From IMG/VR virus record IMGVR_UViG_3300020045_016671, positions 1 through 27,632 of that record: DNA of 27,632 bases, one strand, 5' to 3'. The number at the start of each line of letters is the position of its first letter. Position 1 is the stretch's first letter. Both the position numbers and the translations under genes were made by a program. The notes below the pieces were generated by a model. It was given only the letters and a program-made list of their open reading frames with translations. It did no database searches and was not told where the DNA came from. Source of the DNA: a virus. Taxonomy: Duplodnaviria; Caudoviricetes. Shown here piece after piece: positions 2 through 27,632 of this stretch.

Positions 2-3000
2 CCAGAATTCAAGGCGTGGTTTGGAGATTCCAAGGTGGTGGATGAGAACGGGAAGCCGCTGGTGGTGTATCATGCAACCAGTAACGATTTTTCTGAATTT
101 TCTAACGCATACACCCGGGGGCAACTTGGGTTTCATTTTGGTACTCGCGACGCGACGGAAGAAATTCACGATAGAAACGCTTTTAATGACCGAGGGGGGA
201 ACGCCCGTACCATCCCGGTGTACTTGGCAGTCAAGAATCCTTTGCGTCTGTCTGACCTAGGAGCTTGGCAAGGCGAGGACATCGCTCGGATGGTCAACGA
301 CGCGATAGGTTCTAGTCTGCCGCTAAGTGCATCTGATCGTGCTATCCGAGAGGTTATCCAGCGAGCGGGATATGATGGGGTTGTGTACAAAAACGAATTT
401 GAGGACGGGGGCGGAGAAACGGACTCCTACATCGCCTTCTCCCCCGCCCAGATCAAGTCGGTGAACAACCGTGGCACCTACGATCCCGCAGATCCGAACA
501 TACTCCGCTCAATCCGGGTGGAAAGACTTGCAGAACAATATGCAAAGATGGAGAAGGAGGTCGATGCCGCCTTCGAAAACAATGACCCGAAAGCGGAAGA
601 ACTCGATGCTCAGTTGGCGGAAATGAAGGACCAACTGGAGGGGATGGTGGCAGAGCTTGAGGGAGACAATTCCGATTATGAGGAAACCTTTGAATATGAG
701 GTTGGAATTGAGGAAAACCTGGCGTACTCATACGCGACAATGGTCCTTGACAGGGGTAGGGGATACACCAGAGAAGACGCCATTGCGAACTTTCGGGATG
801 TCCTGGTGTCGATGGGGGCCAGGAAGTCTATCGAGGCTCCCGACGATGAAATATATGCAGCTGCAGAGGACGCATATAAGACCGTCCTCTTCCGCAGAAA
901 CAGGATAAGACAACCTCTGGAAGGCGCTCCGGACGCTCCTGCAAACTATTCAGTGCGAGTTGAACCTCCGAAGAAGACGATCAAGGCGTATAAGCTTTTC
1001 CGGACTCTCAAAAACCGGCCTGGCGAGATCTTCCCGTTGTTTATCGGGAAAGACGTCCCGACTCCGGTGGGAGAATGGATCCAGGCAGAGTATCGACCGA
1101 CACCCGGGTTCGCGCAGCGCCCAGGATGGCACGTCGGAACGCTTCCGATGGCAGACCATTTGATGAAAAAGGACGGGACCATGCAGTCCGGTCGCGTATG
1201 GGCGGAGGTCGAGATCCCGGCGGACGTAAACTGGCAGGACATTGCAAACCAGCAGCCGACAAAAGACATCCAGGGTATGACTCCGGAGGGTGGATATTAC
1301 CGCTTCAAGCGACCGGCGAACCAGGGTGGCGAATGGATGATCGCGGGATCTATCAAAGTGAACAGGATCCTGGACGAGGAAGATGTAAAATCGATCCTCG
1401 CTGTCACGCAGACCGGCCTAGAAACAGCGGGCGGGATAAAAGATTTGGTCGGCAAATACGAGAATGGTGAAGAAAACCTAACCATCGAAGATGTCGTCGA
1501 TGGTACAGAAGATATCCTGATCGAAAATGCCAAGAACGGCGAGGACACCGGGGAGGAGTATAAGCTACAGAAAGCTATAGCCAAATTCAGAAAGGAACAG
1601 GAATACGACTACAAGCACTCTGGTCGGGGTGATATGGACACCGCAAGAGACAAAGTCATGTCGTCCATCGAGCGCTATCTGGGAGGAGTTCCCCAGAGGT
1701 CCATCCGCATCAAGTCCGCCATCCACAAGGCGACCGGATTGACCAAAGTATCCGACGTGGTCCGTACCGACGTGGCATTCCGCGAGGTGCTGCGGAGATC
1801 TGCGAGAGCAGCCCAGGAGGCCTATAAAGCCGGGCTTAAAGAAGGAACCGAAGCAGAGAAGGCCAAGGCGGCGGAGAAGCTGGCCCAGGCCAAACAGGAT
1901 ATGAAGGATCTCCTGGCGCAGCGCAAGGAACGGGACGCGGCCAGGGCTGAAGCGCAGGGAATTATCAATGACATAAACAAGGTACGCCGGGCGCTCAAAT
2001 CCCTGCAGCCGGAAGCTCAGTCGGCAATCAAGCCGCTCCTGGACTCGATCGACTTCCAGGCGATGAGCAGCGACAAGCGCATCACCTACGAGACACTGCA
2101 GAACATCTACTCCGCCAATCCGCAGTTCACTCCTCCGGAGGAGACTGTGGCGAAGATGGAGAGGCTTTCGAAGACACCTATCAGAGATCTGACGATCGAA
2201 GACCTAGCCGGGATCCGCGACATGGTCCGGGAGGCGGAGGCGCTCAGTCAGGCAAAAGAGGCGGAGAGGAACCAGGCGCTGAAGGACATCAGCAAGATCG
2301 CCGACAAGACCGGGAACATCGCCGTGGACTATAAGAAGCAGATCAATGCGCTCCTGGCTCAGTTCGATTTCAAGAAGCCGACAGAGCAGAAGATGCAGGA
2401 ACTACGATCGCTGAAGGCCTTCCTGGACGCCAATGGAGTTCCGCTGGGGATCTCCGGGAAGTACCTGGCCGAACTGGAGCGCCTGGGCAAGACACCACTG
2501 AAGGAGCTATCGACATCGGACCTGGTCAGCTTGGCGAACACGCTGAAGCACCTCCAAGCGCTTGGACGGTTGAAGGCGGACCTCAAGTACAAATACCATG
2601 AAAGGGAGCGGCAGAAGGCTCTCACCGCACTGATCGCCGACACCCACAATATCGATCCATCGGTGGCGGACCTCGCGGACAAGACCGGCAGGGAGAAGCT
2701 CCGGATCGGATTGAAGTCGGCATACGTCCAGACCCTTCATACGACCAGGGTGGCGGATATGCTCGACGGGTTCGCCAACTACAAAAAGAACAATGCCAGG
2801 CTGATCAAAGAGCTTGGAGAAGCTGAAACACTGGCCACATGGACGGCGGTCCAGAAGAAGATCGCATTCCTGGCCGAACTGCGCGACATGGGCGTCCAGG
2901 AGATCACTCCGGAGATGGAAGTCCGGATGATGGTTGTCATGCGGCAGCGCGAGGGAGCCAGGTCGGCAGCAGCGAGATTGATCGATCACTATAAATTGGC

Positions 3001-4465
3001 CGGGATCCCGACGCTGACGGCCCAGGAAGAGGCGATCGTCGGTACCATAAAGAAGTACATCAACGCGCAGAAAGACGTCCTGTCGGCAACCTGGGAAGAG
3101 ATAAACCAGGACATCTTCCCGGAGATCGAAACGTACTACCTTCCCTTGAAGTATGAGAAGGAAGAACAGCTGATCCCGGACTCGACGGTGATGGGTGGAT
3201 ACCGCACGACGCATACCTTCGACGGGTTCAGCAACGCCAGGAAGCAAGGCGTCAAGAAGCTCCCGCGAGTGGATCTGATCACGATCTTCAGTGAGGCGCT
3301 CGATGAACAGCTTTGGTTCATGCACCTCCAGCCGAAGATCAACGACATCAGCCAGCTGGTCCTTACCGATGAGTACGGAGAGGCTGGCGGAGAGATGGCT
3401 AAGTCCTGGTGGCGTGATCATCTGGACATCATGGCCAGGAGGGGCTGGTCGAATTCGGCAAAGTCCTCCGCGATCGCCACGGCGCTGGGGACCATCCGGC
3501 ATAACTTGAACCGGTCGGTCCTGCTCTTCAAGCTTTCGACGATCATCATGCAACCGTTCGCGGTCTTCGATGCGATGGCATATGCGAATAGCAAATGGGG
3601 ACCGGTCGCGGCGGCAATGATCCTGGGTGAGGTGACGAAGAACTTCCTGGTCCCGGGTGCAGCGAAGAAGTACATCGAAACATCGAAAGAACTCCAGATG
3701 AGGAAGGGTGGAGAGCTTGCCCTGGAGGAGGAGCTTGCCACGGCACAGGGCTCCAGCATCATGGACAAGGCAACCAGGATCGGATTCTCGCTGATAAGCC
3801 GGGCGGACATCAATACCGCAGCCGGTGTCCAGCAAGCCGTCGAGAGGGTGATGAAGGAGCAGGGTGTGGCGGATCCCATTACCGAAGCTGAATTCATTAT
3901 GAACCTGGTAAGCGGAAATTCATCCACCAATCAGCGACCTCATATACTGGCCAGCGGCGAGGCTGCGCGCACCTGGTTTACCTTCGGGACGTTCATTATG
4001 AACCGATGGGGAATGATCGTCCACGACCTGGTGATGAGCGGACTTGTGAATAGCGAAGGCGTTGGAATTAAGTTGCTTACACTGGCGTCTTTGGGTATAC
4101 TCATGCTGGCCGGGAATGCGGAGGATGAGGCAAGAAAACTCCTCACCGAAATGACCCTGCAGCGCAAGATGAAGGAGAAAAAACACGGTATGTTCTTCCT
4201 TGGGCTTATGAACCTCCTATCAACAATGCCCGTCCTGGGCAATTTCATCAATGCGGCACAGATGGGAGTGTCTCCCGTTCCTCCGACAATGAGGGTAGGA
4301 GAGGAGCTTGTGAAGCGGTCCATGGAGCTTGCAAGCGATAAGGATCCGAAGGCGAAGGCGAAGGCCGCGATGAAGGCGGCAGAGGCAGGATTGACGATAA
4401 CCTACGGGATCCCTGGAACAGCACAGGCGTTCGACATCCTGGAAGGTGCAATGTTCAAAAAATAG
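2..4465 (+). CDS. Giant polyvalent internal virion (ejection) protein, 5'-truncated by the window; N-terminal ART-PolyVal-like ADP-ribosyltransferase domain, further modules, helical C-terminal core with hydrophobic segments
   Basis: Frame is open from base 2 (PEFKAWFGDSKVVDENGKPLVVYHAT...FHFG...PVYLAVKNPL...GYDGVVY...YIAFSPAQIKS...GTYDP), the motif series of ART-PolyVal domains in phage polyvalent proteins. More than 1480 aa, directly upstream of the tail fibre gene, ends TAG at 4463-4465. Confidence 0.8.
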   Translation, partial: PEFKAWFGDSKVVDENGKPLVVYHATSNDFSEFSNAYTRGQLGFHFGTRDATEEIHDRNAFNDRGGNARTIPVYLAVKNPLRLSDLGAWQGEDIARMVNDAIGSSLPLSASDRAIREVIQRAGYDGVVYKNEFEDGGGETDSYIAFSPAQIKSVNNRGTYDPADPNILRSIRVERLAEQYAKMEKEVDAAFENNDPKAEELDAQLAEMKDQLEGMVAELEGDNSDYEETFEYEVGIEENLAYSYATMVLDRGRGYTREDAIANFRDVLVSMGARKSIEAPDDEIYAAAEDAYKTVLFRRNRIRQPLEGAPDAPANYSVRVEPPKKTIKAYKLFRTLKNRPGEIFPLFIGKDVPTPVGEWIQAEYRPTPGFAQRPGWHVGTLPMADHLMKKDGTMQSGRVWAEVEIPADVNWQDIANQQPTKDIQGMTPEGGYYRFKRPANQGGEWMIAGSIKVNRILDEEDVKSILAVTQTGLETAGGIKDLVGKYENGEENLTIEDVVDGTEDILIENAKNGEDTGEEYKLQKAIAKFRKEQEYDYKHSGRGDMDTARDKVMSSIERYLGGVPQRSIRIKSAIHKATGLTKVSDVVRTDVAFREVLRRSARAAQEAYKAGLKEGTEAEKAKAAEKLAQAKQDMKDLLAQRKERDAARAEAQGIINDINKVRRALKSLQPEAQSAIKPLLDSIDFQAMSSDKRITYETLQNIYSANPQFTPPEETVAKMERLSKTPIRDLTIEDLAGIRDMVREAEALSQAKEAERNQALKDISKIADKTGNIAVDYKKQINALLAQFDFKKPTEQKMQELRSLKAFLDANGVPLGISGKYLAELERLGKTPLKELSTSDLVSLANTLKHLQALGRLKADLKYKYHERERQKALTALIADTHNIDPSVADLADKTGREKLRIGLKSAYVQTLHTTRVADMLDGFANYKKNNARLIKELGEAETLATWTAVQKKIAFLAELRDMGVQEITPEMEVRMMVVMRQREGARSAAARLIDHYKLAGIPTLTAQEEAIVGTIKKYINAQKDVLSATWEEINQDIFPEIETYYLPLKYEKEEQLIPDSTVMGGYRTTHTFDGFSNARKQGVKKLPRVDLITIFSEALDEQLWFMHLQPKINDISQLVLTDEYGEAGGEMAKSWWRDHLDIMARRGWSNSAKSSAIATALGTIRHNLNRSVLLFKLSTIIMQPFAVFDAMAYANSKWGPVAAAMILGEVTKNFLVPGAAKKYIETSKELQMRKGGELALEEELATAQGSSIMDKATRIGFSLISRADINTAAGVQQAVERVMKEQGVADPITEAEFIMNLVSGNSSTNQRPHILASGEAARTWFTFGTFIMNRWGMIVHDLVMSGLVNSEGVGIKLLTLASLGILMLAGNAEDEARKLLTEMTLQRKMKEKKHGMFFLGLMNLLSTMPVLGNFINAAQMGVSPVPPTMRVGEELVKRSMELASDKDPKAKAKAAMKAAEAGLTITYGIPGTAQAFDILEGAMFKK

Positions 4466-4475
4466 GAGGTGGATT

Positions 4476-6887
4476 GTGAAGAGAATACTTGGGATCCTGG
4501 TGGCCTTTTTTATGCTGGCTGCTCCGGCGCTGGCAACGGTGTCGACAGAAACAACGAAAGTGACATACACTTGCAACGGGACGGCAACGACCTATGCCTA
4601 CCCGTTCAAGGTTCTGGCAACGAGCGACCTCCTGGTGGTAAAGAGGACCGGGTCGACAGAAACGACCCTGGCATACACGACCGACTATACGGTGACCGGC
4701 GCTGGCGGATCCAGCGGGAATGTCGTACTCACCGCTGGCAGCAAGTGCGCCTCCGGGTACTCACTGACGATTCTCCGGAACGTGCCGATAACCCAGCTGA
4801 CAGACTATGTTGACGGTGAAGCGTTTTCGGCAGAATCGCTGGAAACGGCGCTTGATAAAGCGACTCTCCTCCTGCAGCAGCAGAAAGAGCAGATCGGTCG
4901 ATCCCCAAAACTGCCAACGACGTCTACGATCACCGATATCGCCCTGCCGAATCCCACGGCTAATAACTATATCGGCTGGAATGCGGGTGCCACGGGACTT
5001 GAAAATAAAGCGGTCCCTGTCGTTACCACGGCGACACAATATGAAGTTGACGCCATTATCTCCTACGGCTCTGGTACCTCTTATACCTCCGCCACGATCA
5101 ACGCGGCTCTGACGGCCATCGGGACTACGAACAAGGCGACTCTACTTTTACGACCCGGAACGTGGGTGATTGCGGCCGGGGATGCTGACCTGACCATCCC
5201 CGCCAACGTCACCATGAAGATGCCAGCGGGAGCCGTGATCAGTGTCGCCACCGGCGTCACCCTGTCCATCAACGGCCCCCTTGATGCCGGTTTGCATCAG
5301 GTGTTTTCTTGCATTGGAACCGGGCGGGTTATGTTTGGCGTGGGAGCGGTTAAGGAAGTGTATCCCGAATGGTTTGCAACAAACACTACCCCAGGGACCA
5401 CGGACATGACCGCCGCAATCAGGGCCGCGATCGTATCTGCGTCACGGTACGGTAAAGTTGTGCTCGATAACGCTTACAAAATAACGGGAGACGTTTCCCC
5501 TACGAATAAATCGGACTTGCTTATTACTGGCAAAGGGTCAATCTCTCTTGTTACCGGATCGGCAACGGCCGTATATGCTTTTGGTCTTGTCGGCACTATG
5601 GACAACGTGACCATCGAAGAGCTTTCACTTATTGGCGAAGGCGACGCGACGTACAACCAGACTGCCGTTGGGTCGGATTCCGGGCAGACGCTTTCCAATA
5701 TCACGGTTCGCAACCTCAAAATTACAAACTTTAATGTGGGAATTTCTGCAAACGCTCATATAGGTGGATCTGCAACAAAGTTCAGCATTTACGATAATGA
5801 GTTGACAAACATCCTAGGAACGACTGCCGGGAAAGGATACGGAATTCATCTTGCCAAGGCCACGCATACGAAAGTCATGCGGAACAGTATTGACAACTGT
5901 CAACGGCACTCTATCTACCAAGGATCGGGGGATAATGTTAATAACGTAATATCCGGTAACGTGATCACGAACCACCGGAAGGGCGTGGCGACGGGCGCAT
6001 ATCTCCCAGCCATCGCCATCGCCAGGAGCTCCGGGATTCGGTGCGACAACAACACGCTGGTCGATTTCTTCGACGGCGGCATCCACGTCCAGCAGGAAGA
6101 GAGCACGACGACAAGCGCCCAGAACATCTCCGTCGTCAATAACCAGCTCATCGGCCGGAAAAACGACATCCCGGGGATCGGCATCGGAGATCCCAACACC
6201 GGGCCGACCGCCTACTGGACCGAGCGGGTGGACATCAGGGGGAACTTCATCACGACAAACCGGGCATCCGTTGGCGGGTACGAGATCCGCGTCTTCAACG
6301 GGCGTCAGATCGACCTCTCAAATAACACGATCGTTTTGACGGGGGTGGCGAGCGCCGCCTACGCCTTCGGTATCGGGTCTAACACCATGGATGCCGCCAC
6401 AGATCTGGACTATGTCACCGCATCCGGGAATGCCGTCTTCGGCACGGGCGGCGATCTCTCCGCTGTCTATGGGTTCCAGTTTTCGTCCGAGGTTGACACC
6501 CTTGACTCTCACGTCACCGCAACGCGCAACACCTTCGGTGATGTCAAGGATTATGAGAATGACGCGGTAGTGGCGAACAAGTACTTGGTCTACGAGACGG
6601 GTACTGGCGGGAGGAAGGGGTTCTATGCCGCCGGAGATCTGACCCCATCCGTCTACGGTAAAAATTATATGGTTATCACTAATGGCTCTGCGAAGACTGT
6701 TACGAACCTGGATGATGGCGAGGAAGGGCAGGTCGTTCGTCTTTACTTCGGCGACGGGAATACCACGATCGGCCACTATGGGACGGGTTCGTTCTGGCTT
6801 GCTGGTGGCGCAGACAAGAACATGCAAGCTGGAGACTCGCTGCAAGTTATGCTTTATGATGGTTATTGGCGAGAGTTGGCGAACTGA
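4476..6887 (+). CDS. Tail fibre/tailspike: T7 gp17-like N-terminal anchor plus parallel beta-helix (pectate-lyase-like) body, preceded by a predicted signal peptide
   Basis: SD AGGAGGT (4464-4470) precedes GTG at 4476, so the ORF-track start at 4446 is probably too early. TVSTETTKVTYTCNGTATTYAYPFKV...DYTVTG...LTILRNVPITQLTDY...ETALDKATLLLQQ matches the podovirus fibre anchor. VYPEWF...TDMTAAIRAAI followed by Asn/Gly/Ile-rich beta-helix repeats. Confidence 0.85.
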   Translation: MKRILGILVAFFMLAAPALATVSTETTKVTYTCNGTATTYAYPFKVLATSDLLVVKRTGSTETTLAYTTDYTVTGAGGSSGNVVLTAGSKCASGYSLTILRNVPITQLTDYVDGEAFSAESLETALDKATLLLQQQKEQIGRSPKLPTTSTITDIALPNPTANNYIGWNAGATGLENKAVPVVTTATQYEVDAIISYGSGTSYTSATINAALTAIGTTNKATLLLRPGTWVIAAGDADLTIPANVTMKMPAGAVISVATGVTLSINGPLDAGLHQVFSCIGTGRVMFGVGAVKEVYPEWFATNTTPGTTDMTAAIRAAIVSASRYGKVVLDNAYKITGDVSPTNKSDLLITGKGSISLVTGSATAVYAFGLVGTMDNVTIEELSLIGEGDATYNQTAVGSDSGQTLSNITVRNLKITNFNVGISANAHIGGSATKFSIYDNELTNILGTTAGKGYGIHLAKATHTKVMRNSIDNCQRHSIYQGSGDNVNNVISGNVITNHRKGVATGAYLPAIAIARSSGIRCDNNTLVDFFDGGIHVQQEESTTTSAQNISVVNNQLIGRKNDIPGIGIGDPNTGPTAYWTERVDIRGNFITTNRASVGGYEIRVFNGRQIDLSNNTIVLTGVASAAYAFGIGSNTMDAATDLDYVTASGNAVFGTGGDLSAVYGFQFSSEVDTLDSHVTATRNTFGDVKDYENDAVVANKYLVYETGTGGRKGFYAAGDLTPSVYGKNYMVITNGSAKTVTNLDDGEEGQVVRLYFGDGNTTIGHYGTGSFWLAGGADKNMQAGDSLQVMLYDGYWRELAN

Positions 6888-6947
6888 AACTGTAGTCATT
6901 TAGGAGGATCGCCAATAATTACCGGATGACCGTGACTGCGAGGTGAC

Positions 6948-7409
6948 ATGAAAAAGTACCTACAGGACATTTATGACGCGAACAGGAGAGACTTCGGGAA
7001 CCTTTCCGACGATCAGATCCTCGCGCTGACCATCTATGCGGAGGCCAGGGGAGAATCCCTCGAGGGAAAAATCGCCGTCGGGTCTGTCATCCTGGAGCGG
7101 GTAGACCATCGAACGTGGGACGGTGACACCATCCATGAGGTTTGCCTGTGGCCCATGCAGTTCAGCTGCTACAACCCGGCGGATCCAAACCGGACCATGC
7201 TGAAAAAAATCACCGATACATGGAGGGACGAGATAGGCAAAAACAAGACACTGCAGGAGTGCATGGAGATATCACAGGGATTGATATCTGGATCCATTGA
7301 GCGGTATCCAAAGGCACTTGATTACTTTAACCCAGCGGTGTGCCAACCCGTATGGGAAAAGGAGAAAACCTTTGTTGCAGAAATCGGCCACCACAAATTC
7401 TATACATAA
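6948..7409 (+). CDS. Endolysin, SleB/Hydrolase_2 family cell wall hydrolase (lytic transglycosylase)
   Basis: LALTIYAEARGES.EGKIAVGSVILERV...EVC...QFSCYN...YFNP...W...IGHHKFY motifs; SD GAGGTG before ATG. Confidence 0.9.
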   Translation: MKKYLQDIYDANRRDFGNLSDDQILALTIYAEARGESLEGKIAVGSVILERVDHRTWDGDTIHEVCLWPMQFSCYNPADPNRTMLKKITDTWRDEIGKNKTLQECMEISQGLISGSIERYPKALDYFNPAVCQPVWEKEKTFVAEIGHHKFYT

Positions 7410-7422
7410 GGAGGATACCGCA

Positions 7423-7770
7423 ATGGTCCGTAACCACCACGATGACGGCTTGCCCTGCGCGACGTCATGCCGCGAGGAGATCCTGGCGAAGATAGGGAGG
7501 TGCATCGACGTCGCATCCCTATGGAAGTTTGCCGGGATCATGGTGAGCATTGTCACCACCGTAATTATTCTTAGCATCACCGTTCACTCATCTGGACAGG
7601 ACGCAAGAGACACGGCGGCAAAGAATAATTATGAACAGATACAAAAAAATACCATTGCCATTGCAGAGATAAAAAAAGACCTGGAGTTCATAAAGAACGG
7701 GCAGGAAGAGATAAAGAAAACTTCTGATCTACACTTTGATTCGCTGCTGAAAGAAATAAAAAAAAAATAG
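7423..7770 (+). CDS. Single-TM membrane protein with C-terminal coiled coil (lysis cassette; holin- or spanin-like)
   Basis: SD AAGGAGG before ATG 7423 (in frame with track ORF 7297..7770); TM segment FAGIMVSIVTTVIILSITV; heptad IAIAEIKKDLEFIKNGQEEIKK. Confidence 0.6.
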   Translation: MVRNHHDDGLPCATSCREEILAKIGRCIDVASLWKFAGIMVSIVTTVIILSITVHSSGQDARDTAAKNNYEQIQKNTIAIAEIKKDLEFIKNGQEEIKKTSDLHFDSLLKEIKKK

Positions 7771-7779
7771 GAGGACACC

Positions 7780-8043
7780 GTGAATCTAGAAAAAAAGGTG
7801 CTATACGCGATGCAAGCGGCAATTATGATGGTGGCGTTCGTCTACATATTCAGCATAACATTCTTGCCACTCGCTCAAACAGGACTCGATCACAGCAAGA
7901 CGGTCTTGGGGTTTATCCTAGGGACTGTCCTTGGGACTCTCCTGACCTATAATTGGGGGACGTCAAAGGGGTCCGCTGACAAAACGGAGGCGGCAGAGAA
8001 GCGGCTGGATGCAACAAACAAAAAGGAAGGTGGTGCAGAATGA
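7780..8043 (+). CDS. Putative holin, two TM helices
   Basis: SD AGGAGG and GTG start; two hydrophobic helices followed by YNWGTSKGSADK, resembling the Y(F/Y)FGSS.GS..K tail of small phage holins; located in the lysis cassette. Confidence 0.65.
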   Translation: MNLEKKVLYAMQAAIMMVAFVYIFSITFLPLAQTGLDHSKTVLGFILGTVLGTLLTYNWGTSKGSADKTEAAEKRLDATNKKEGGAE

Positions 8044-8411
8044 GAAAGATACAGGGGTATGCTGCCATATTTATGATCATGGCAGTGATAATGTTCATGG
8101 CTTGTGCTGGTCCACAGCCGGTGAAGCAGTACGAACTTGGGAAGGTGACGGCGGAGACTCTCCTCTATGAGGCGAGGATGGCACAGAACCGGGCTCAGAT
8201 AACCGCTGCTCAGTTCGACCAGGTGAAGAAGGTCTATGACCAGCTGAAACAGGCCCAGGATATCGCCATTGACGCCAGGAAGGCGATGATCACGTTCAAC
8301 ACGGTAGACAACCAGGCCAAGTCTCAGAAGTCCATGGAGGCCGTCCTGGCGCTTTCCGGAAGGTTCGTCGCGCTGGCCACAGACATCGGTCTGATTAAGG
8401 GGGTGAAGTGA
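8040..8411 (+). CDS. Lipoprotein (possible outer-membrane lysis/spanin-like function)
   Basis: MRK plus hydrophobic stretch plus lipobox-like FMA-C (Cys22); helical mature part; ATGA overlap with the holin gene. Confidence 0.65.
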   Translation: MRKIQGYAAIFMIMAVIMFMACAGPQPVKQYELGKVTAETLLYEARMAQNRAQITAAQFDQVKKVYDQLKQAQDIAIDARKAMITFNTVDNQAKSQKSMEAVLALSGRFVALATDIGLIKGVK

Positions 8412-8611
8412 TGGATCCCGCAACCATTATCACTATCGCAAACGCGGCCCAGCTGCTTTCCATCGGGCTGGATATCGCCTTGAAGGCGAACAGGGTTCTG
8501 AACACCACCGCTCCGGAGTCGATCGACGAGGAACTGAAGAGGCTGGATGCCGCCAAATTGCGTCCCAGCGAAGAGATCATCGCGGAGGCCGATAAGGCAA
8601 GCGGGAAGTGA
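8408..8611 (+). CDS. Small hypothetical protein, last gene of the lysis cassette
   Basis: Overlaps the lipoprotein stop; amphipathic N-terminus and charged C-terminus. Confidence 0.6.
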   Translation: MMDPATIITIANAAQLLSIGLDIALKANRVLNTTAPESIDEELKRLDAAKLRPSEEIIAEADKASGK

Positions 8612-9106
8612 TCAGATGTCCTCTGAGACAATCCTGTGGACTCTGACGCCTGGTAATTGATGAAACATGATCCGCCGGGAATCGACAGCCCGGCGGATCA
8701 GATCATGGGCAAGACCTGACTCGACGCTGATGGCGTTGACCAGGACAAGACACCACCCTGCGATCGACGCTTCGGAGTACTTCTCATTTCCGGCAGCGAC
8801 ACCCTTGATGGTCTGGTGACCACTGGCGGATCCGGACGTGAAGTTGAGCCCCTCATACTCGATGGCGATCTTCATGGCCGGGATCGCCCAATCAAACCTC
8901 CACTTCCGCTTCTTGTCGAACTGATACTCCTTCTCGACGTCCAGCTTCTGCGACAGGAAGATGAGATCGATCATCTGCTTGTACTTATTGGCATGGGTCT
9001 TCGGTTTGAGCCCGGCGCGTGGTACGGGTACTGACCCGGTATGGGGACAGTGCTGGCAGACCATCGAGTCCTTCCAGGCGCATCCGTTGCATTCTGCTTT
9101 CATCAT
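8612..9106 (-). CDS. PD-(D/E)XK endonuclease (Vsr/DUF559-like) with N-terminal Cys cluster
   Basis: EYQF...RKWRFDWA.P..KIAIEYEG...H...G...KY..A...GW motif; N-terminal CxxC..CxxC; SD GGAGG. Confidence 0.75.
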   Translation of the reverse strand: MMKAECNGCAWKDSMVCQHCPHTGSVPVPRAGLKPKTHANKYKQMIDLIFLSQKLDVEKEYQFDKKRKWRFDWAIPAMKIAIEYEGLNFTSGSASGHQTIKGVAAGNEKYSEASIAGWCLVLVNAISVESGLAHDLIRRAVDSRRIMFHQLPGVRVHRIVSEDI

Positions 9107-16669: not shown

Positions 16670-17059
16670 ATGCGATCAAGAAATATAAAGCCAGCCCTGT
16701 TCAAGAACGAACTTCTCGCGGAATGCGATCCCCTGGCCAGGCTGATGTTCACCGGTTTGTGGTGCATGGCAGACCGGGAAGGACTCCTGGAGTACCGTCC
16801 GAAGAGGATCAAAGTTGAGGTATTGCCGTATGACAACGTGGACATCGAGAAGCTCCTGCAGCAGCTGGAAGACAGAGGATTCATTAAAATATACACAATA
16901 AAAACGAACAAGTACATCCAGGTGGTTAATTTCTTAAAGCACCAAAACTGCCACATCCATGAGCAAAAAAGCACCATACCAGCACCAGACTTATATAGTG
17001 CAAGCACCGTGCAAGCACCATGCAAGTACAAGTTGAACACCAGGGAGGCACCGGGGTAG
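16670..17059 (+). CDS. Phage replication initiator, N-terminal domain only
   Basis: R.RNIKP.LF.NE.LAE..PLARL.F.GLWC.ADREG.LE.RP.RIK..VLPYD...YIQ..NF.KHQ..H..E..S.IPAP is the N-terminus of a common phage initiator family; ends within iteron repeats. Confidence 0.75.
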   Translation: MRSRNIKPALFKNELLAECDPLARLMFTGLWCMADREGLLEYRPKRIKVEVLPYDNVDIEKLLQQLEDRGFIKIYTIKTNKYIQVVNFLKHQNCHIHEQKSTIPAPDLYSASTVQAPCKYKLNTREAPG

Positions 17060-24790: not shown

Positions 24791-25698
24791 TGACAAGCCG
24801 AAACCAAAAAGTCCCGATTGTCACGCTTCCGGTGGACATTCAGAAGTACAAGGATGCCGCCGTTGGCACGGACAACCCAATAGCGACAACTGAACAGTCT
24901 CCGATCACGGATCTGCCTGTCCAGATGTCGGACGGGGACAACGTGGTTGAGGGGTCGCTCGCTGATGCGGCGGTTGCGGCGGGGGCTGCTGGGAGTATAT
25001 CCGCGAAGCTCCGCAGACTGACTACCGACATCGATGCGCTGCTCACTGAACTGAAGCTAAAGGCAGACCTGACTGAAACGCAGCCCGTGGGCATTCTCGG
25101 GTATCGGTCAAGTGATGGTACGTTCCAGCCTCTTCGTCTGGACAAGGCGACGAATACTCTCCAGACCATCGAGTATGAACACCATGAGATTCATGCCGGG
25201 TCTTCGTTCACTTGCCACTTCAATAACGATGTTACGAACATCGGTGAGCAGACGGGCATCGCTTTCAATACTCCGAATACGACGAAGTGGCTACACATCC
25301 AGGTCACGGCAGTGGCAACGGGGGCGGCGTATATCTCCATCTACGAAGTGGCAGACCTTGATGTGGATGAGGGGACCGACCTTGCCGTCTATAACCGGGA
25401 CAGGAATAGTCTTACGGAATCGGAAGTTTCAAGCATAGAGACTGCGCCAGAAGCAGGGAAGGCGACAAGCTATAACGAAGCTCAACTCGCAGGGTCGACA
25501 CTCTCCACGGCAACCGAAATCATGCGGAAGTACATTGGACAAGCCGGGAAGAGCGGTATCGGTGGAGAGACAAGGGCGATCGGGGAGTTCATTCTGAAGC
25601 AGGGGACACAGTATGCGTTTGTGATTACAAGCTTGACGGCGGATGATGCCACGCACAATATCACGCTTGATTGGTACGAGCATCAAAGTATAACCTGA
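24790..25698 (+). CDS. Hypothetical structural protein (beta-rich C-terminal domain)
   Basis: 302 aa, TAATG-coupled, lies in the late operon; TIEYEHHEIH.G and W.E terminus. Confidence 0.6.
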   Translation: MTSRNQKVPIVTLPVDIQKYKDAAVGTDNPIATTEQSPITDLPVQMSDGDNVVEGSLADAAVAAGAAGSISAKLRRLTTDIDALLTELKLKADLTETQPVGILGYRSSDGTFQPLRLDKATNTLQTIEYEHHEIHAGSSFTCHFNNDVTNIGEQTGIAFNTPNTTKWLHIQVTAVATGAAYISIYEVADLDVDEGTDLAVYNRDRNSLTESEVSSIETAPEAGKATSYNEAQLAGSTLSTATEIMRKYIGQAGKSGIGGETRAIGEFILKQGTQYAFVITSLTADDATHNITLDWYEHQSIT

Positions 25699-27295
25699 TA
25701 AACATGGCATTCTCCTTCGCCATGGCATCGAGTCTACCCTTCCGGACAGCATCGATCTGCTGCTGGACCCTCATCACCTTCGCCGGTACGCGGTTCGAAT
25801 CCGCCAGGATCCGCCCGGCCTCATCCAGGTCGAAGTTATCGAGGACATCACAGGCCACCTGGGCGCGAATCTGGAGATCGACCAGGCCCGACAGTTCAGC
25901 CATAAACTTCCTCAGACCGTCCTTGGCGAAGCGTTCCCTCTGTGCCTGGGCCAGCGGACCCATGTAGATAGGATCGAAGCGTAGAGCGCCATCCTCCCCC
26001 TTCCCGTAGGCATCAAATAGCTCCTGCGGAGGGGTAGGCATCAGCGATCTGGACCGCTGAGTCTCTATCCGGTATGTATCATCCAGGATCCCATCGAGAG
26101 CGGTATTGAAGGATCCCAACTCCGCTCCCAGGACCGCTGCCTTTTCCGCCATCAGTTCGGACACCTCATAGGCTGTCTTGGCACCACCCGTCATCTGAGA
26201 CAGGAGCAGGAACACGTCCAGGTGGAATCTCTTCTCGATCTGCCGCTGCTTGGCCTGTTCTCGATCGATCCCCACCGGGAAGTCCTTGCCGGTATTCACA
26301 GGAGTGATCCTATCTGAAGGATTCTCCATGTAGTTGAGCCCCCTTGGCTTCAGCTGGACCTTGCCCAGCAGATATGATGGGACATTGTATGCAGGGTCTA
26401 CCGCAAGCTGGGCCGCGCCCAGGAGCGTTTTTGCCATCAAGTTCAGTGACCGGATATCCGGCATCGCCAGGGTGGCCGGGCTCAGTCCGTATGGATCCTT
26501 CCCGGTCTTCAGATATCGCCATACCTGGTACGGGAAGGCGTCGAACCCACCCTCCTGGCAGATATGGTTTCCTGCCGTCATCAGATAGACCTCTGCGAAC
26601 TTCTTGCTCTTCCGGTCCATCTTCCGATCGTCATAATTGTCTCGCGGGAATACCGCGTGAATCAGTTCGAATTCCTCAAAGGGATTCACCCTCGCAGCAT
26701 TCCGTACAGTCTCAGGACAGCCTTCCTGGCCAAACATCTCGACCATCTGCTTCGCGGTAAGCTTCCGTTTACGATGAAGGACATCAACCTCACCATATTT
26801 ATTCTCAGCGATGAATATCTCTCCGGGATGTACAGCTTCATAGACCACCCTCTCCCTGGCGATATCGTCCATCGCAAAGATCGCTGCAGTCCCCAGCGTG
26901 ATCCCGTCGTATATGAACTTCCACATCTCGTCGTAGAAGTTGGACCGGAGCAGAGTCATGTACATTCTGAACTCTGTCCGGTCCAGCCAATCTCTGATCG
27001 GGGGAAGCTGGTTCGCCTCCTGGACGTTCACCTGGTACTTGAACCAGGCGAACGCCGGAGATACATGGTACCCATGGATGCCCGAAGTCGCATCGACTGC
27101 CGCATTGACTGCGGTCCCGTCGTAGATCTTCGTCCCCTTCTTCTCCCCCTTCTGCAGGACACCACGGATGTCATCTCGATGAGGAGACACATAGTCCGCG
27201 ACCTCCTGCATCCGGTCGGCGAAGTTCGTTTTATTGGTTTCCAGCTTCGACTGTCTGCTGGTTACCAAAGTCTTCAGTTGCTGGTTTTGCTCCAT
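25661..27295 (-). CDS. Head-tail connector (portal), T7 gp8/BPP-1 type; inverted and probably with a non-native C-terminus
   Basis: E.ADYV.P...IYDGTA...WF...SNFY...GT....YG.VD...YG.SPA..A.PDI.SL...TA.EV......LG...Y.GPLAQAQ...R..R motifs. Confidence 0.9.
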   Translation of the reverse strand: MEQNQQLKTLVTSRQSKLETNKTNFADRMQEVADYVSPHRDDIRGVLQKGEKKGTKIYDGTAVNAAVDATSGIHGYHVSPAFAWFKYQVNVQEANQLPPIRDWLDRTEFRMYMTLLRSNFYDEMWKFIYDGITLGTAAIFAMDDIARERVVYEAVHPGEIFIAENKYGEVDVLHRKRKLTAKQMVEMFGQEGCPETVRNAARVNPFEEFELIHAVFPRDNYDDRKMDRKSKKFAEVYLMTAGNHICQEGGFDAFPYQVWRYLKTGKDPYGLSPATLAMPDIRSLNLMAKTLLGAAQLAVDPAYNVPSYLLGKVQLKPRGLNYMENPSDRITPVNTGKDFPVGIDREQAKQRQIEKRFHLDVFLLLSQMTGGAKTAYEVSELMAEKAAVLGAELGSFNTALDGILDDTYRIETQRSRSLMPTPPQELFDAYGKGEDGALRFDPIYMGPLAQAQRERFAKDGLRKFMAELSGLVDLQIRAQVACDVLDNFDLDEAGRILADSNRVPAKVMRVQQQIDAVRKGRLDAMAKENAMFIRLYFDARTNQA

Positions 27296-27311
27296 GGGTA
27301 TCCCCTATGCT

Positions 27312-27632
27312 CTATGCCAATCCAAGCGTATGAACCGCGTAGGTGACGTAAACCGTGACAACAGAATCATCCGCCGCGTTCCCCCCGATTTCTCCATCGC
27401 CGGAGTTTTTAAGCATGAGCTTCTTCCCGTTGAACGACGCCGTGGCAGCACCAGCGATGAGCTTCGGCGCAACCACCGTCAAAGTGTCAGCGGTCGCGGT
27501 AAGGAATCCGCTGGAAGTAATCGCTGCGGAGGCATCGACACCGGATGTCTCGTACTCGATTACCAGGTCATCACTGGACTCAGTAAACGCGTTGCTTCCG
27601 TAATCCAGCACAAGAGTGGCACCGATGAACTG
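27312..27632 (-). CDS. Structural protein fragment (head fibre/decoration-like), 5' end beyond the window
   Basis: Frame is open to the edge (QFIGATLVLDYGS...VTVYVTYAVHTLGLA); Ala/Thr/Gly-rich beta pattern; upstream of the portal. Confidence 0.55.
   Translation of the reverse strand, partial: QFIGATLVLDYGSNAFTESSDDLVIEYETSGVDASAAITSSGFLTATADTLTVVAPKLIAGAATASFNGKKLMLKNSGDGEIGGNAADDSVVTVYVTYAVHTLGLA

Follow-up and report, generated by a model that had tools for sequence, protein, structure and literature searches.

A podovirus tailspike gene with a secretion leader

The stretch of DNA analysed here, which we call the window, is the entire virus record IMGVR_UViG_3300020045_016671 (27,632 bases), and the gene in question is an open reading frame (ORF) of 803 codons at positions 4476-6887. 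The spike gene and the features described around it (2-8611) lie on the plus strand. The product is a podovirus tailspike with a tail-docking anchor of the Carin-1 Dpo36/epsilon15 type, and it begins with a 20-residue leader of the Sec/signal peptidase I type. The best reading of these data, to which we give a probability of about 0.6, is that the spike is exported through Sec, cleaved, folded in the periplasm and attached to phage particles at lysis. Cleavage would expose the Thr that is the usual end of this family, the mature spike would fold in the periplasm, the host being Smithella-like, and it would dock onto finished cytoplasmic particles once lysis opens the inner membrane. As a first guess, the advantage would be access to the disulfide-forming or modifying machinery of the host. 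Among the individual steps, export and cleavage appear very probable, attachment to particles at or after lysis seems likely, and periplasmic folding as a trimer with a probable Cys33-Cys91 bond seems likely to a slightly lesser degree. This reading is supported by the recurrence of the leader with an exact cleavage register, by a docking fold shared with virion-bound fibre anchors, by the lack of a spare fibre and by core proteins that are leaderless.

The gene starts at GTG 4476 behind the Shine-Dalgarno (SD) site AGGAGGT (4464-4470), which overlaps the stop codon TAG (4463-4465) of the upstream gene. We calculated pairing with a 9-nt anti-SD motif for five in-frame starts. GTG 4476 gives the best value, -11.5 kcal/mol, compared with -4.9 for ATG 4512, -4.0 for GTG 4500, -2.4 for GTG 4446 and -1.7 for GTG 4539. 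These four alternatives were rejected, given the pairing of their ribosome sites and the starts of homologues. ATG 4512 lies 8 codons 5' of the Thr at which the mature protein would begin, and the Thr position itself offers no start codon. The first-pass annotation had proposed the strong SD with GTG 4476 and had regarded ATG 4512 as lacking an SD, and both judgements stand.

From GTG 4476, the predicted product reads MKRILGILVAFFMLAAPALA up to the cleavage site and TVSTETTKVTY after it, with cysteines at residues 33 (YTCNG) and 91 (SKCAS). The leader (4476-4535) shows what is expected of a Sec/signal peptidase I substrate: a basic n-region (K2, R3), a hydrophobic h-region (10-residue hydropathy of 2.97), a Pro at -4 and small residues at -3 and -1 in an A-L-A site. 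Here and throughout, leaders were called by a home-made, uncalibrated rule that combines hydropathy with an A-x-A site. Other kinds of leader were considered and rejected. The n-region, M-K-R-I, lacks the twin Arg of a twin-arginine translocation (Tat) signal. A lipoprotein leader for signal peptidase II would have a lipobox Cys at +1, where the leader-bearing anchors described below have Thr (58 of 60), Val (1) or Leu (1). Signal-anchor-release (SAR) domains are uncleaved, weakly hydrophobic, Gly/Ala-rich N-terminal helices, and this reading is excluded by the conserved cleavage motif and the strongly hydrophobic h-regions. Of the 11 PHROGs families that match the window protein, 10 begin at query residue 20-21, mostly at profile position 2, and the eleventh begins at residue 23. 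Therefore, the family's own N-terminus lies directly behind the leader.

The region behind the leader (4536-4955) is a tail-docking domain composed of a beta-sandwich and a long helix, and it contains both cysteines. Residues 21-143 match phrog_1640, annotated as a tail protein, from profile position 2 with an expectation value (E) of 4.8e-35. A profile built from 36 leader-bearing relatives retrieves the Carin-1 Dpo36 tail fibre, aligned from Carin-1 residue 2 (domain E 2.6e-36), and tblastn yields 72 phage records, among them epsilon15, phiV10 and HTVC010P. The AlphaFold2 model of residues 21-200 has a mean predicted local distance difference test score (pLDDT) of 83. Compared by VIA-align, the only structure comparison used, the anchor model matches 8CK1_B with Z 15.9 and a root-mean-square deviation (rmsd) of 2.0 over 120 residues, and T7 gp17 with Z 12.2, rmsd 3.0 over 124 residues and 20% identity (7BOZ) or Z 11.8 (8E4G). 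The ten top fold matches, T7 gp17 included, are all podovirus tail or portal-tail complexes. The T7 gp17 family PF03906 does not match the window protein at E 0.01; it is recorded for 6 homologues among the best 120 of 292. Thus, the T7 gp17-like anchor of the first-pass annotation survives as a likeness of fold, and the closer kin are Carin-1 Dpo36, the epsilon15 tailspike and HTVC010P-type fibres. Its larger claims, that a cleavable Sec leader sits on a true tail-docking domain and that cleavage would expose the family's native N-terminus, are supported by the leader motif, the fold match and the PHROGs alignment, as well as by the homologue survey and the Thr register that it reveals.

Beyond the anchor, a linker and middle domain occupy approximately 4956-5465. 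The second part of this region, residues 207-331, resembles the N-terminal portion of the outer halves of the split fibres found at two related loci, L132 and L136 (37-39% identity, E 2e-17 and 3e-13). A right-handed beta-helix follows, for which the best Pfam stretch is residues 405-556 (5688-6143; PF13229, E 6.2e-06), and then a phage depolymerase C-terminal beta-sandwich at residues 732-796 (6669-6863; PF25692, E 4e-06). The family profile also matches the Sf6 tailspike, pectin lyases and epimerases, and a single-sequence search with the spike body detects no similarity to any solved chain. Judging from these domain matches, the beta-helix body likely binds or cuts polysaccharide. The protein thus has the features of a Carin-1/epsilon15-type tailspike (the docking domain, a distal beta-helix/depolymerase domain and, in the window and in its relatives G001 and G003, a position 3' of a large ejection gene) except for the leaderless M-T start.

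Leaders across the family of anchors

The first-pass annotation had called for a survey of homologous fibres for conserved signal peptides. An anchor search found 292 proteins, the best 120 of which were used, and locus searches added at least 3, 80 of 503, 33 and 80 of 558. Three listed proteins without an N-terminus were dropped and identical copies were removed, leaving 267 distinct anchors, the window's included. A hydrophobic leader is present on 60 of these 267, the window's again among them, although the queries were leader-bearing and this proportion is not the family-wide frequency. The leaders are varied in sequence and regular at the cleavage site: 57 of the 60 have Ala at -1, 55 have Ala, Val or Ser at -3, and 58 have Thr at +1. 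Mean identity to the window is 31% for the leaders and 62% for the anchors behind them, which suggests that the leader is kept in character and function while its sequence drifts.

Among leaderless anchors, 170 of 187 start with M-T. The initiator Met is removed from M-T starts, and therefore leaderless forms, by Met removal, and leader-bearing forms, by signal peptidase cleavage, would arrive at the same mature end. Of 18 distinct DNA contexts, 17 have their strongest anti-SD pairing at the start that yields the full leader; in the eighteenth, that start lay outside the 100 bases examined. Internal starts within leaders pair at -5.4 kcal/mol or weaker. A Met occurs in the last four leader residues in none of the 60 and in the last ten residues in 23, leaving 37 with none there.

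Leaders on other late proteins

Inspection of other structural genes, which the first-pass annotation had also proposed, reveals no leaders on the core proteins of relatives and several on accessory late proteins. Two relatives are informative here: G001, a genome of 44,165 bases rated 100% complete, and G003, 54% complete, in which the terminase and portal are 68% and 69% identical to those of the window. In both, the terminase, portal, scaffold, capsid, adaptor, nozzle and ejection proteins are all leaderless, which excludes the idea that the whole virion is built in the periplasm. The leader-bearing products in these genomes are the spike and two ORFs just 5' of the portal gene (159 and 675 residues in G001; 179 and 688 residues in G003). 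The window, G001 and G003 each yielded a single anchor-bearing gene, and in all three it has a leader. Given that G001 is complete, there is no leaderless spare in that phage.

Runs of leader-bearing ORFs also occur at the fibre position elsewhere, with six in L176 and about seven in L126. Within 8 kb downstream of the anchor, 13 of 41 ORFs have a leader where the anchor has one, as compared with 36 of 394 where the anchor is leaderless (Fisher p 1.6e-4), a comparison in which the loci are related rather than independent and some lysis membrane proteins are counted. Leaderless anchors are followed by leader-bearing runs in L041, L086, L061, L007 and L118. Most leader-bearing late proteins belong to no family. 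Two of them, from L061 and L176, contain beta-helices or BNR propellers, as in receptor-binding proteins, and their position in the operon leads us to infer that the leader-bearing late proteins are virion appendages. For the 675-residue protein of G001, the phage collection contains no match and no Pfam or PHROGs family was found; Atlas offers only unnamed viral look-alikes at 0.90 or below.

Two further observations concern leaders at other positions or in other hosts. Leader-bearing late proteins of no known family also occur toward the head genes of the operon, either preceding the portal or following the capsid genes, in L195 (7,971-10,944), L198 (8,552-11,184) and L197 (12,872-16,462); these are candidate head fibres. 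L086, from a record titled Pelotomaculum, has a leaderless anchor followed by four leader-bearing ORFs on a contig binned to a Bacillota genome, and it may be a mis-binned phage or else a case of export in a host that lacks an outer membrane.

Possible docking of the spike onto the particle

The spikes of P22 and the fibres of T7 and T4 are the last parts to attach, and bare particles accept them in vitro, which makes attachment at lysis physically reasonable. To this we add a predicted complex of three mature anchors and two adaptors of G001, which scored 0.43 against 0.00 for the best control. In the calibration of this procedure, 116 of 157 solved pairs and 2 of 215 mismatched pairs attained the mark, but at scores of 0.60 or below only 18 of the 157 did so, together with both mismatches. 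The anchor-adaptor runs agree in at least 0% of contacts, and the pLDDT of the partners is at least 83. This prediction lends weak support to docking, and because the complex resembles the solved structure 8CK1, the pass may be memory.

By analogy, virion proteins of the Cellulophaga phages phi18:3 and phi10:1 are also consistent with docking of a leader-bearing spike: in the parts of these genomes covered, 7 of 24 proteins noted in GenBank as virion proteins by tandem mass spectrometry (MS/MS) have Sec-type leaders. These include gp085-087 of phi18:3 (KC821620) and gp091-094 of phi10:1 (KC821618), and they are leader-bearing virion proteins of cultured tailed phages. They differ from the window spike in that the host belongs to the Bacteroidota, the leaders end in A before a Q, and the records are silent on export; they serve as an analogy and not as members of this family.

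The probable host and its candidate disulfide-forming machinery

The nearest integrated relative, locus L082, is 68-70% identical to the window in the anchor region. L082 lies between a transfer-messenger RNA (tmRNA) gene and a repeat of the 3' end of that gene about 14.4 kb away, and an integrase is present. The host gene that flanks it falls in a 90% cluster with a Smithella protein, and its integrase in one with a Smithellaceae protein. L082 therefore sits in a Smithella-like host, and from this locus alone we infer a Smithella-like host for the window. The remnant itself (L082 802-15,600) is a 14.4-kb prophage that keeps an integrase, an ejection gene, the spike with its leader, another fibre-like gene and lysis genes; no head genes were seen between its attachment sites.

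The L082 host genome, G005, encodes a membrane protein (L219 651-1,718) in which VKOR-like cysteines are fused to a CxxC thioredoxin. This fusion occurs in 99 of the 116 genomes of the host family with a score under the Pfam VKOR cut-off, and it may represent a disulfide-forming system of strict anaerobes. Pfam DsbB was found in none of five genomes (G005 included, G179 apart) and in 1 of the 116 genomes of the host family, and Pfam VKOR over cut-off was found in 0 of 5 and 6 of 116. From these negatives we had considered that the host lacks an oxidase, an idea that was dropped when thioredoxin matches revealed the divergent fusion.

Observations on both sides of the cysteine claim

Both anchor cysteines are present in 51 of the 60 leader-bearing anchors and in 5 of the 207 others, two of which have cut-off leaders. 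Covariation between Cys33 and Cys91 ranks 2 of 7,260, with kinship handled by weighting only. Together with the VKOR-like fusion of the host, this makes a Cys33-Cys91 bond plausible, as the first-pass annotation had suggested on the basis of the two cysteines. The proposed connection between the pair and the leader fares less well, since it fails a tree-aware test: that test has 4 independent pairs and gives a sign test p of 1. Within the leader-bearing group, P0018 has lost both cysteines.

Evidence that weighs against export and late docking

Several findings tell against the export reading, or at least against its most general form. Nine of the 60 leader-bearing anchors lack the Cys pair and the pair is kept in leaderless forms, and the failed tree-aware test belongs here as well. 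The density of cysteines is 0.76 per 100 residues in leader-bearing proteins and 0.91 in the others, and even numbers of cysteines occur in 21 of 47 and 28 of 65. Thus, Cys content, parity and the tree-aware test leave unsupported the general rule that export exists for the sake of disulfides. The disulfide-bearing virion proteins of phage Milano are reportedly leaderless. Virion disulfides do occur in Milano, according to PMC10491603, so cysteines alone do not require export.

Leaderless forms also lie close to the leader-bearing ones. Leaderless anchors in or beside the leader-bearing group include P0024/L117 (91% identical), P0038 (76%), L128 (75%) and P0025/L118 (69%), and the DNA of L117 and L128 has a ribosome site directly before the Met of the leaderless anchor. 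In the split fibres of L132 and L136, whose leaderless anchors are 90% identical to each other, the outer half is leader-bearing in L132 and leaderless in L136. In the host order, 339 genomes contain 13 anchors, and the only leader is on that of G005 (L082). Of the 72 phage records with the anchor, the 8 GenBank records examined are all leaderless, beginning with M-T, and there is no cultured leader-bearing member among them. Finally, the MS/MS presence of the Cellulophaga proteins demonstrates neither cleavage nor docking.

The first-pass annotation had held that absence of the leader from close homologues would count against its proposal. The leader is kept in 60 of 267 anchors and absent from a minority of close relatives, of which P0024/L117 is the closest; given this 91% identity, export is not obligatory for the anchor. 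In some lineages at least, the spike can apparently assemble without export. Since the leader is lost in close relatives, export resembles a switch added to an otherwise ordinary spike rather than a demand of the fold. Thinning at 85% identity left 185 of the 267 anchors, and a quick tree of these, built from 137 columns and with many forks open, requires at least 11 changes of leader state, 4 of them forced by well-supported branches, as compared with 38.8 for shuffled labels. P0020 and P0087, which have cut-off leaders, were counted as leader-bearing on this tree, and the leaderless P0024 was lost in thinning, so 11 is probably an underestimate. The L136 outer half has the same upstream bases and the same first two codons as that of L132 and then runs straight into the mature sequence. 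The difference between L132 8,746-10,338 and L136 3,290-5,716 looks as if about 24 codons had been lost or gained cleanly and in frame.

Alternative explanations

An alternative to docking is that the spike is exported and cleaved but acts mainly as a free periplasmic or released enzyme, with the anchor a relic or only partly used. Such an enzyme might strip or mask host surface polysaccharide against re-adsorption of progeny, for superinfection exclusion or for easier release. The beta-helix and the depolymerase C-terminal domain suit this role, free depolymerase activity is known for phages (PMC6116005), and 9 of 25 relatives of the body or the C-terminal domain bear leaders without this anchor. 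The relative in the tmRNA-integrated remnant L082 also persists without head genes, as a host-useful gene might. Nevertheless, we consider the free enzyme unlikely, since the anchor is conserved well above the drifting leaders and is cut exactly at the family's first residue, since the gene keeps the place of a fibre gene in the late operon, and since it is the only anchor-bearing gene found in the complete G001, which would otherwise be without a tail-docking fibre. Somewhat less likely still is dual localization, in which export is leaky or slow and a cytoplasmic pool, either uncleaved or made from ATG 4512, equips the virion while the surplus is exported. The position of that ATG, the Met residues in the last ten positions of 23 leaders, and the leaderless close relatives, which show that cytoplasmic assembly of the spike is possible, all favour such a pool. 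It is opposed by the 37 leaders with no Met in those positions, by the absence of Met from the last four residues in all 60 and by the weak pairing of internal starts. A strongly hydrophobic h-region, moreover, favours efficient targeting.

Given the proximity of the spike gene to the lysis cassette, it is also conceivable, though improbable, that the leader serves as a membrane tether or timer, with the spike held at the inner membrane in the manner of a SAR endolysin and set free by signal peptidase or when the membrane collapses at lysis, so that particles would be armed only at the end of infection. Signal peptidase I acts on the periplasmic face of the membrane, which argues against this scheme, and the canonical A-x-A sites with their fixed +1 residue point to prompt cleavage. 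The leaders are rich in Leu, Ile and Phe, unlike the weak Gly/Ala-rich helices of SAR proteins. Exported and SAR endolysins do provide a precedent (PMC6116005). That the leader is an artefact of start calling or a chance open frame is the least credible of these explanations. The GTG start and a probable misjoin in the contig near 25,700 would be in its favour, but 21 kb separate the misjoin from the gene, the Thr has no start codon, no start other than that of the leader has a strong ribosome site, and the homologue survey, with 60 distinct anchors from several collections, contradicts it. Sec export followed by docking at lysis thus remains the reading that we prefer.

Other features of the window

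Apart from the spike gene, the window contains podovirus genes for the small and large terminase subunits, the head-tail connector, recombination, replication and lysis, as identified with Pfam and PHROGs. The large gene upstream of the spike (2-4465), cut off at its 5' end, occupies the position of a podovirus ejection protein, judging from the gene order in relatives. The window copy lacks its start, and the counterparts in relatives are without a leader. Its product contains an ART-PolyVal ADP-ribosyltransferase domain (PF18760, E 2.5e-19) together with further inserted domains (phrog_30118), and it is likely a polyvalent protein injected along with the DNA.

Directly 3' of the spike gene is a lysis cassette (6948-8611), recognized by Pfam, PHROGs and hydropathy. 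It comprises a leaderless cell-wall hydrolase (6948-7409; PF07486, E 8e-18; phrog_938 endolysin), membrane proteins recognized by hydropathy at 7423-7770 and 7780-8043 (holin-like), a lipoprotein-like and putatively spanin-like ORF (8040-8411; hydropathy, with a lipobox in its L004 and L118 counterparts) and a small ORF (8411-8611). The last two ORFs (8,040-8,611) co-occur after the holin-like gene in L004 and L118 and match no family; they are possibly an unusual spanin pair. A scan for promoters and terminators across 3,500-9,000 found nothing beyond shuffled sequence.

The replication-initiator homologue at 16,670-17,059 is just 129 residues long, as compared with about 300 in the PHROGs profiles, and is truncated or split. 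At the end of the window (25,661-27,632), the minus strand carries the portal gene and the final ORF, which face the terminase block; in G003 these genes are in line with it. The match of the window portal to its relatives ends at about residue 529 (566-569 residues in the relatives), the GC skew flips at about 25,700, and a misjoin or inversion near 25,700 is probable. The two leader-bearing genes found 5' of the portal in G001 and G003 are not present in the window. The ORF at 27,312-27,632 (minus strand) encodes the C-terminal 106 residues of a gene upstream of the portal, has no family and does not match the proteins of relatives at that place; its product is possibly the variable end of an appendage protein.

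Relation to known systems and significance

Carin-1 Dpo36 (8CK1), the epsilon15 tailspike, and the phiV10 and HTVC010P-type fibres share with the window spike the docking domain, the position after the ejection gene and a mature start at Thr-Val, and they differ from it in lacking the leader (8 of 8 records examined of Carin-1/epsilon15-type phages have the M-T start). The N-terminal domain of T7 gp17 (7BOZ, 8E4G) has the same fold as the window anchor, with PF03906 failing to match; gp17 is not known to have a leader and is assembled in the cytoplasm.

Spanins, T5 Llp and the coat proteins of filamentous phages use the host Sec pathway. Endolysins, spanins and T5 Llp are not parts of the virion, whereas the window leader is on a soluble part of a tailed particle built in the cytoplasm, and the filamentous coat proteins, unlike the window spike, stay in the inner membrane, where their virion is built. 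Phage use of Sec is likewise documented for Lys44 of fOg44 and for SAR endolysins in PMC6116005. The mosaic adhesive trimer (MAT) fibres of Bdellovibrio are trimeric and phage-like, and a signal peptide precedes their conserved beta-rich domain (PMC10769870). Given that these fibres are exported, fibres of this kind are able to mature after export. They are bacterial surface adhesins rather than phage genes. Signal-peptide proteins have been counted in two Bacteroides phages (2 and 1), without names in the parts of PMC5723332 seen.

The literature searched, which excludes most subscription journals, contains exported endolysins, the Bdellovibrio fibres and virion disulfides and no Sec-exported virion part of a tailed phage. 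The accessible parts of PMC3426561, PMC3517404, PMC5723332 and PMC13576161 hold nothing on the export of virion parts. The protein family is known, and the export route is without a described counterpart in the literature searched.

Tailed phages are held to complete their particles in the cytoplasm prior to lysis. A docking spike that is sent to the periplasm would imply a final assembly step outside the cytoplasm. At roughly even odds, we suggest that this holds for many uncultured tailed phages, with head, tail core and DNA in the cytoplasm, the whole host-recognition kit sent to the periplasm via Sec, and the two meeting at lysis, the leader being switched gene by gene. The kit would comprise the docking spike, the outer fibre halves and accessory appendages, on which host folding and modifying enzymes would act, and the switch would be the gain or loss of a 20-codon leader; we give this broader picture the same even chance. 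The spike family is well suited to tests of these ideas, with a solved anchor structure, cultured leaderless kin (epsilon15) and natural pairs with and without the leader that are up to 91% identical. If the reading is true, receptor-binding proteins would gain disulfide formation and other envelope chemistry, and both the annotation of such proteins (start calls and labels such as 'secreted host protein') and their production would change. Host range would then be tied to the export and folding machinery of the host, and there would be a new point for defence.

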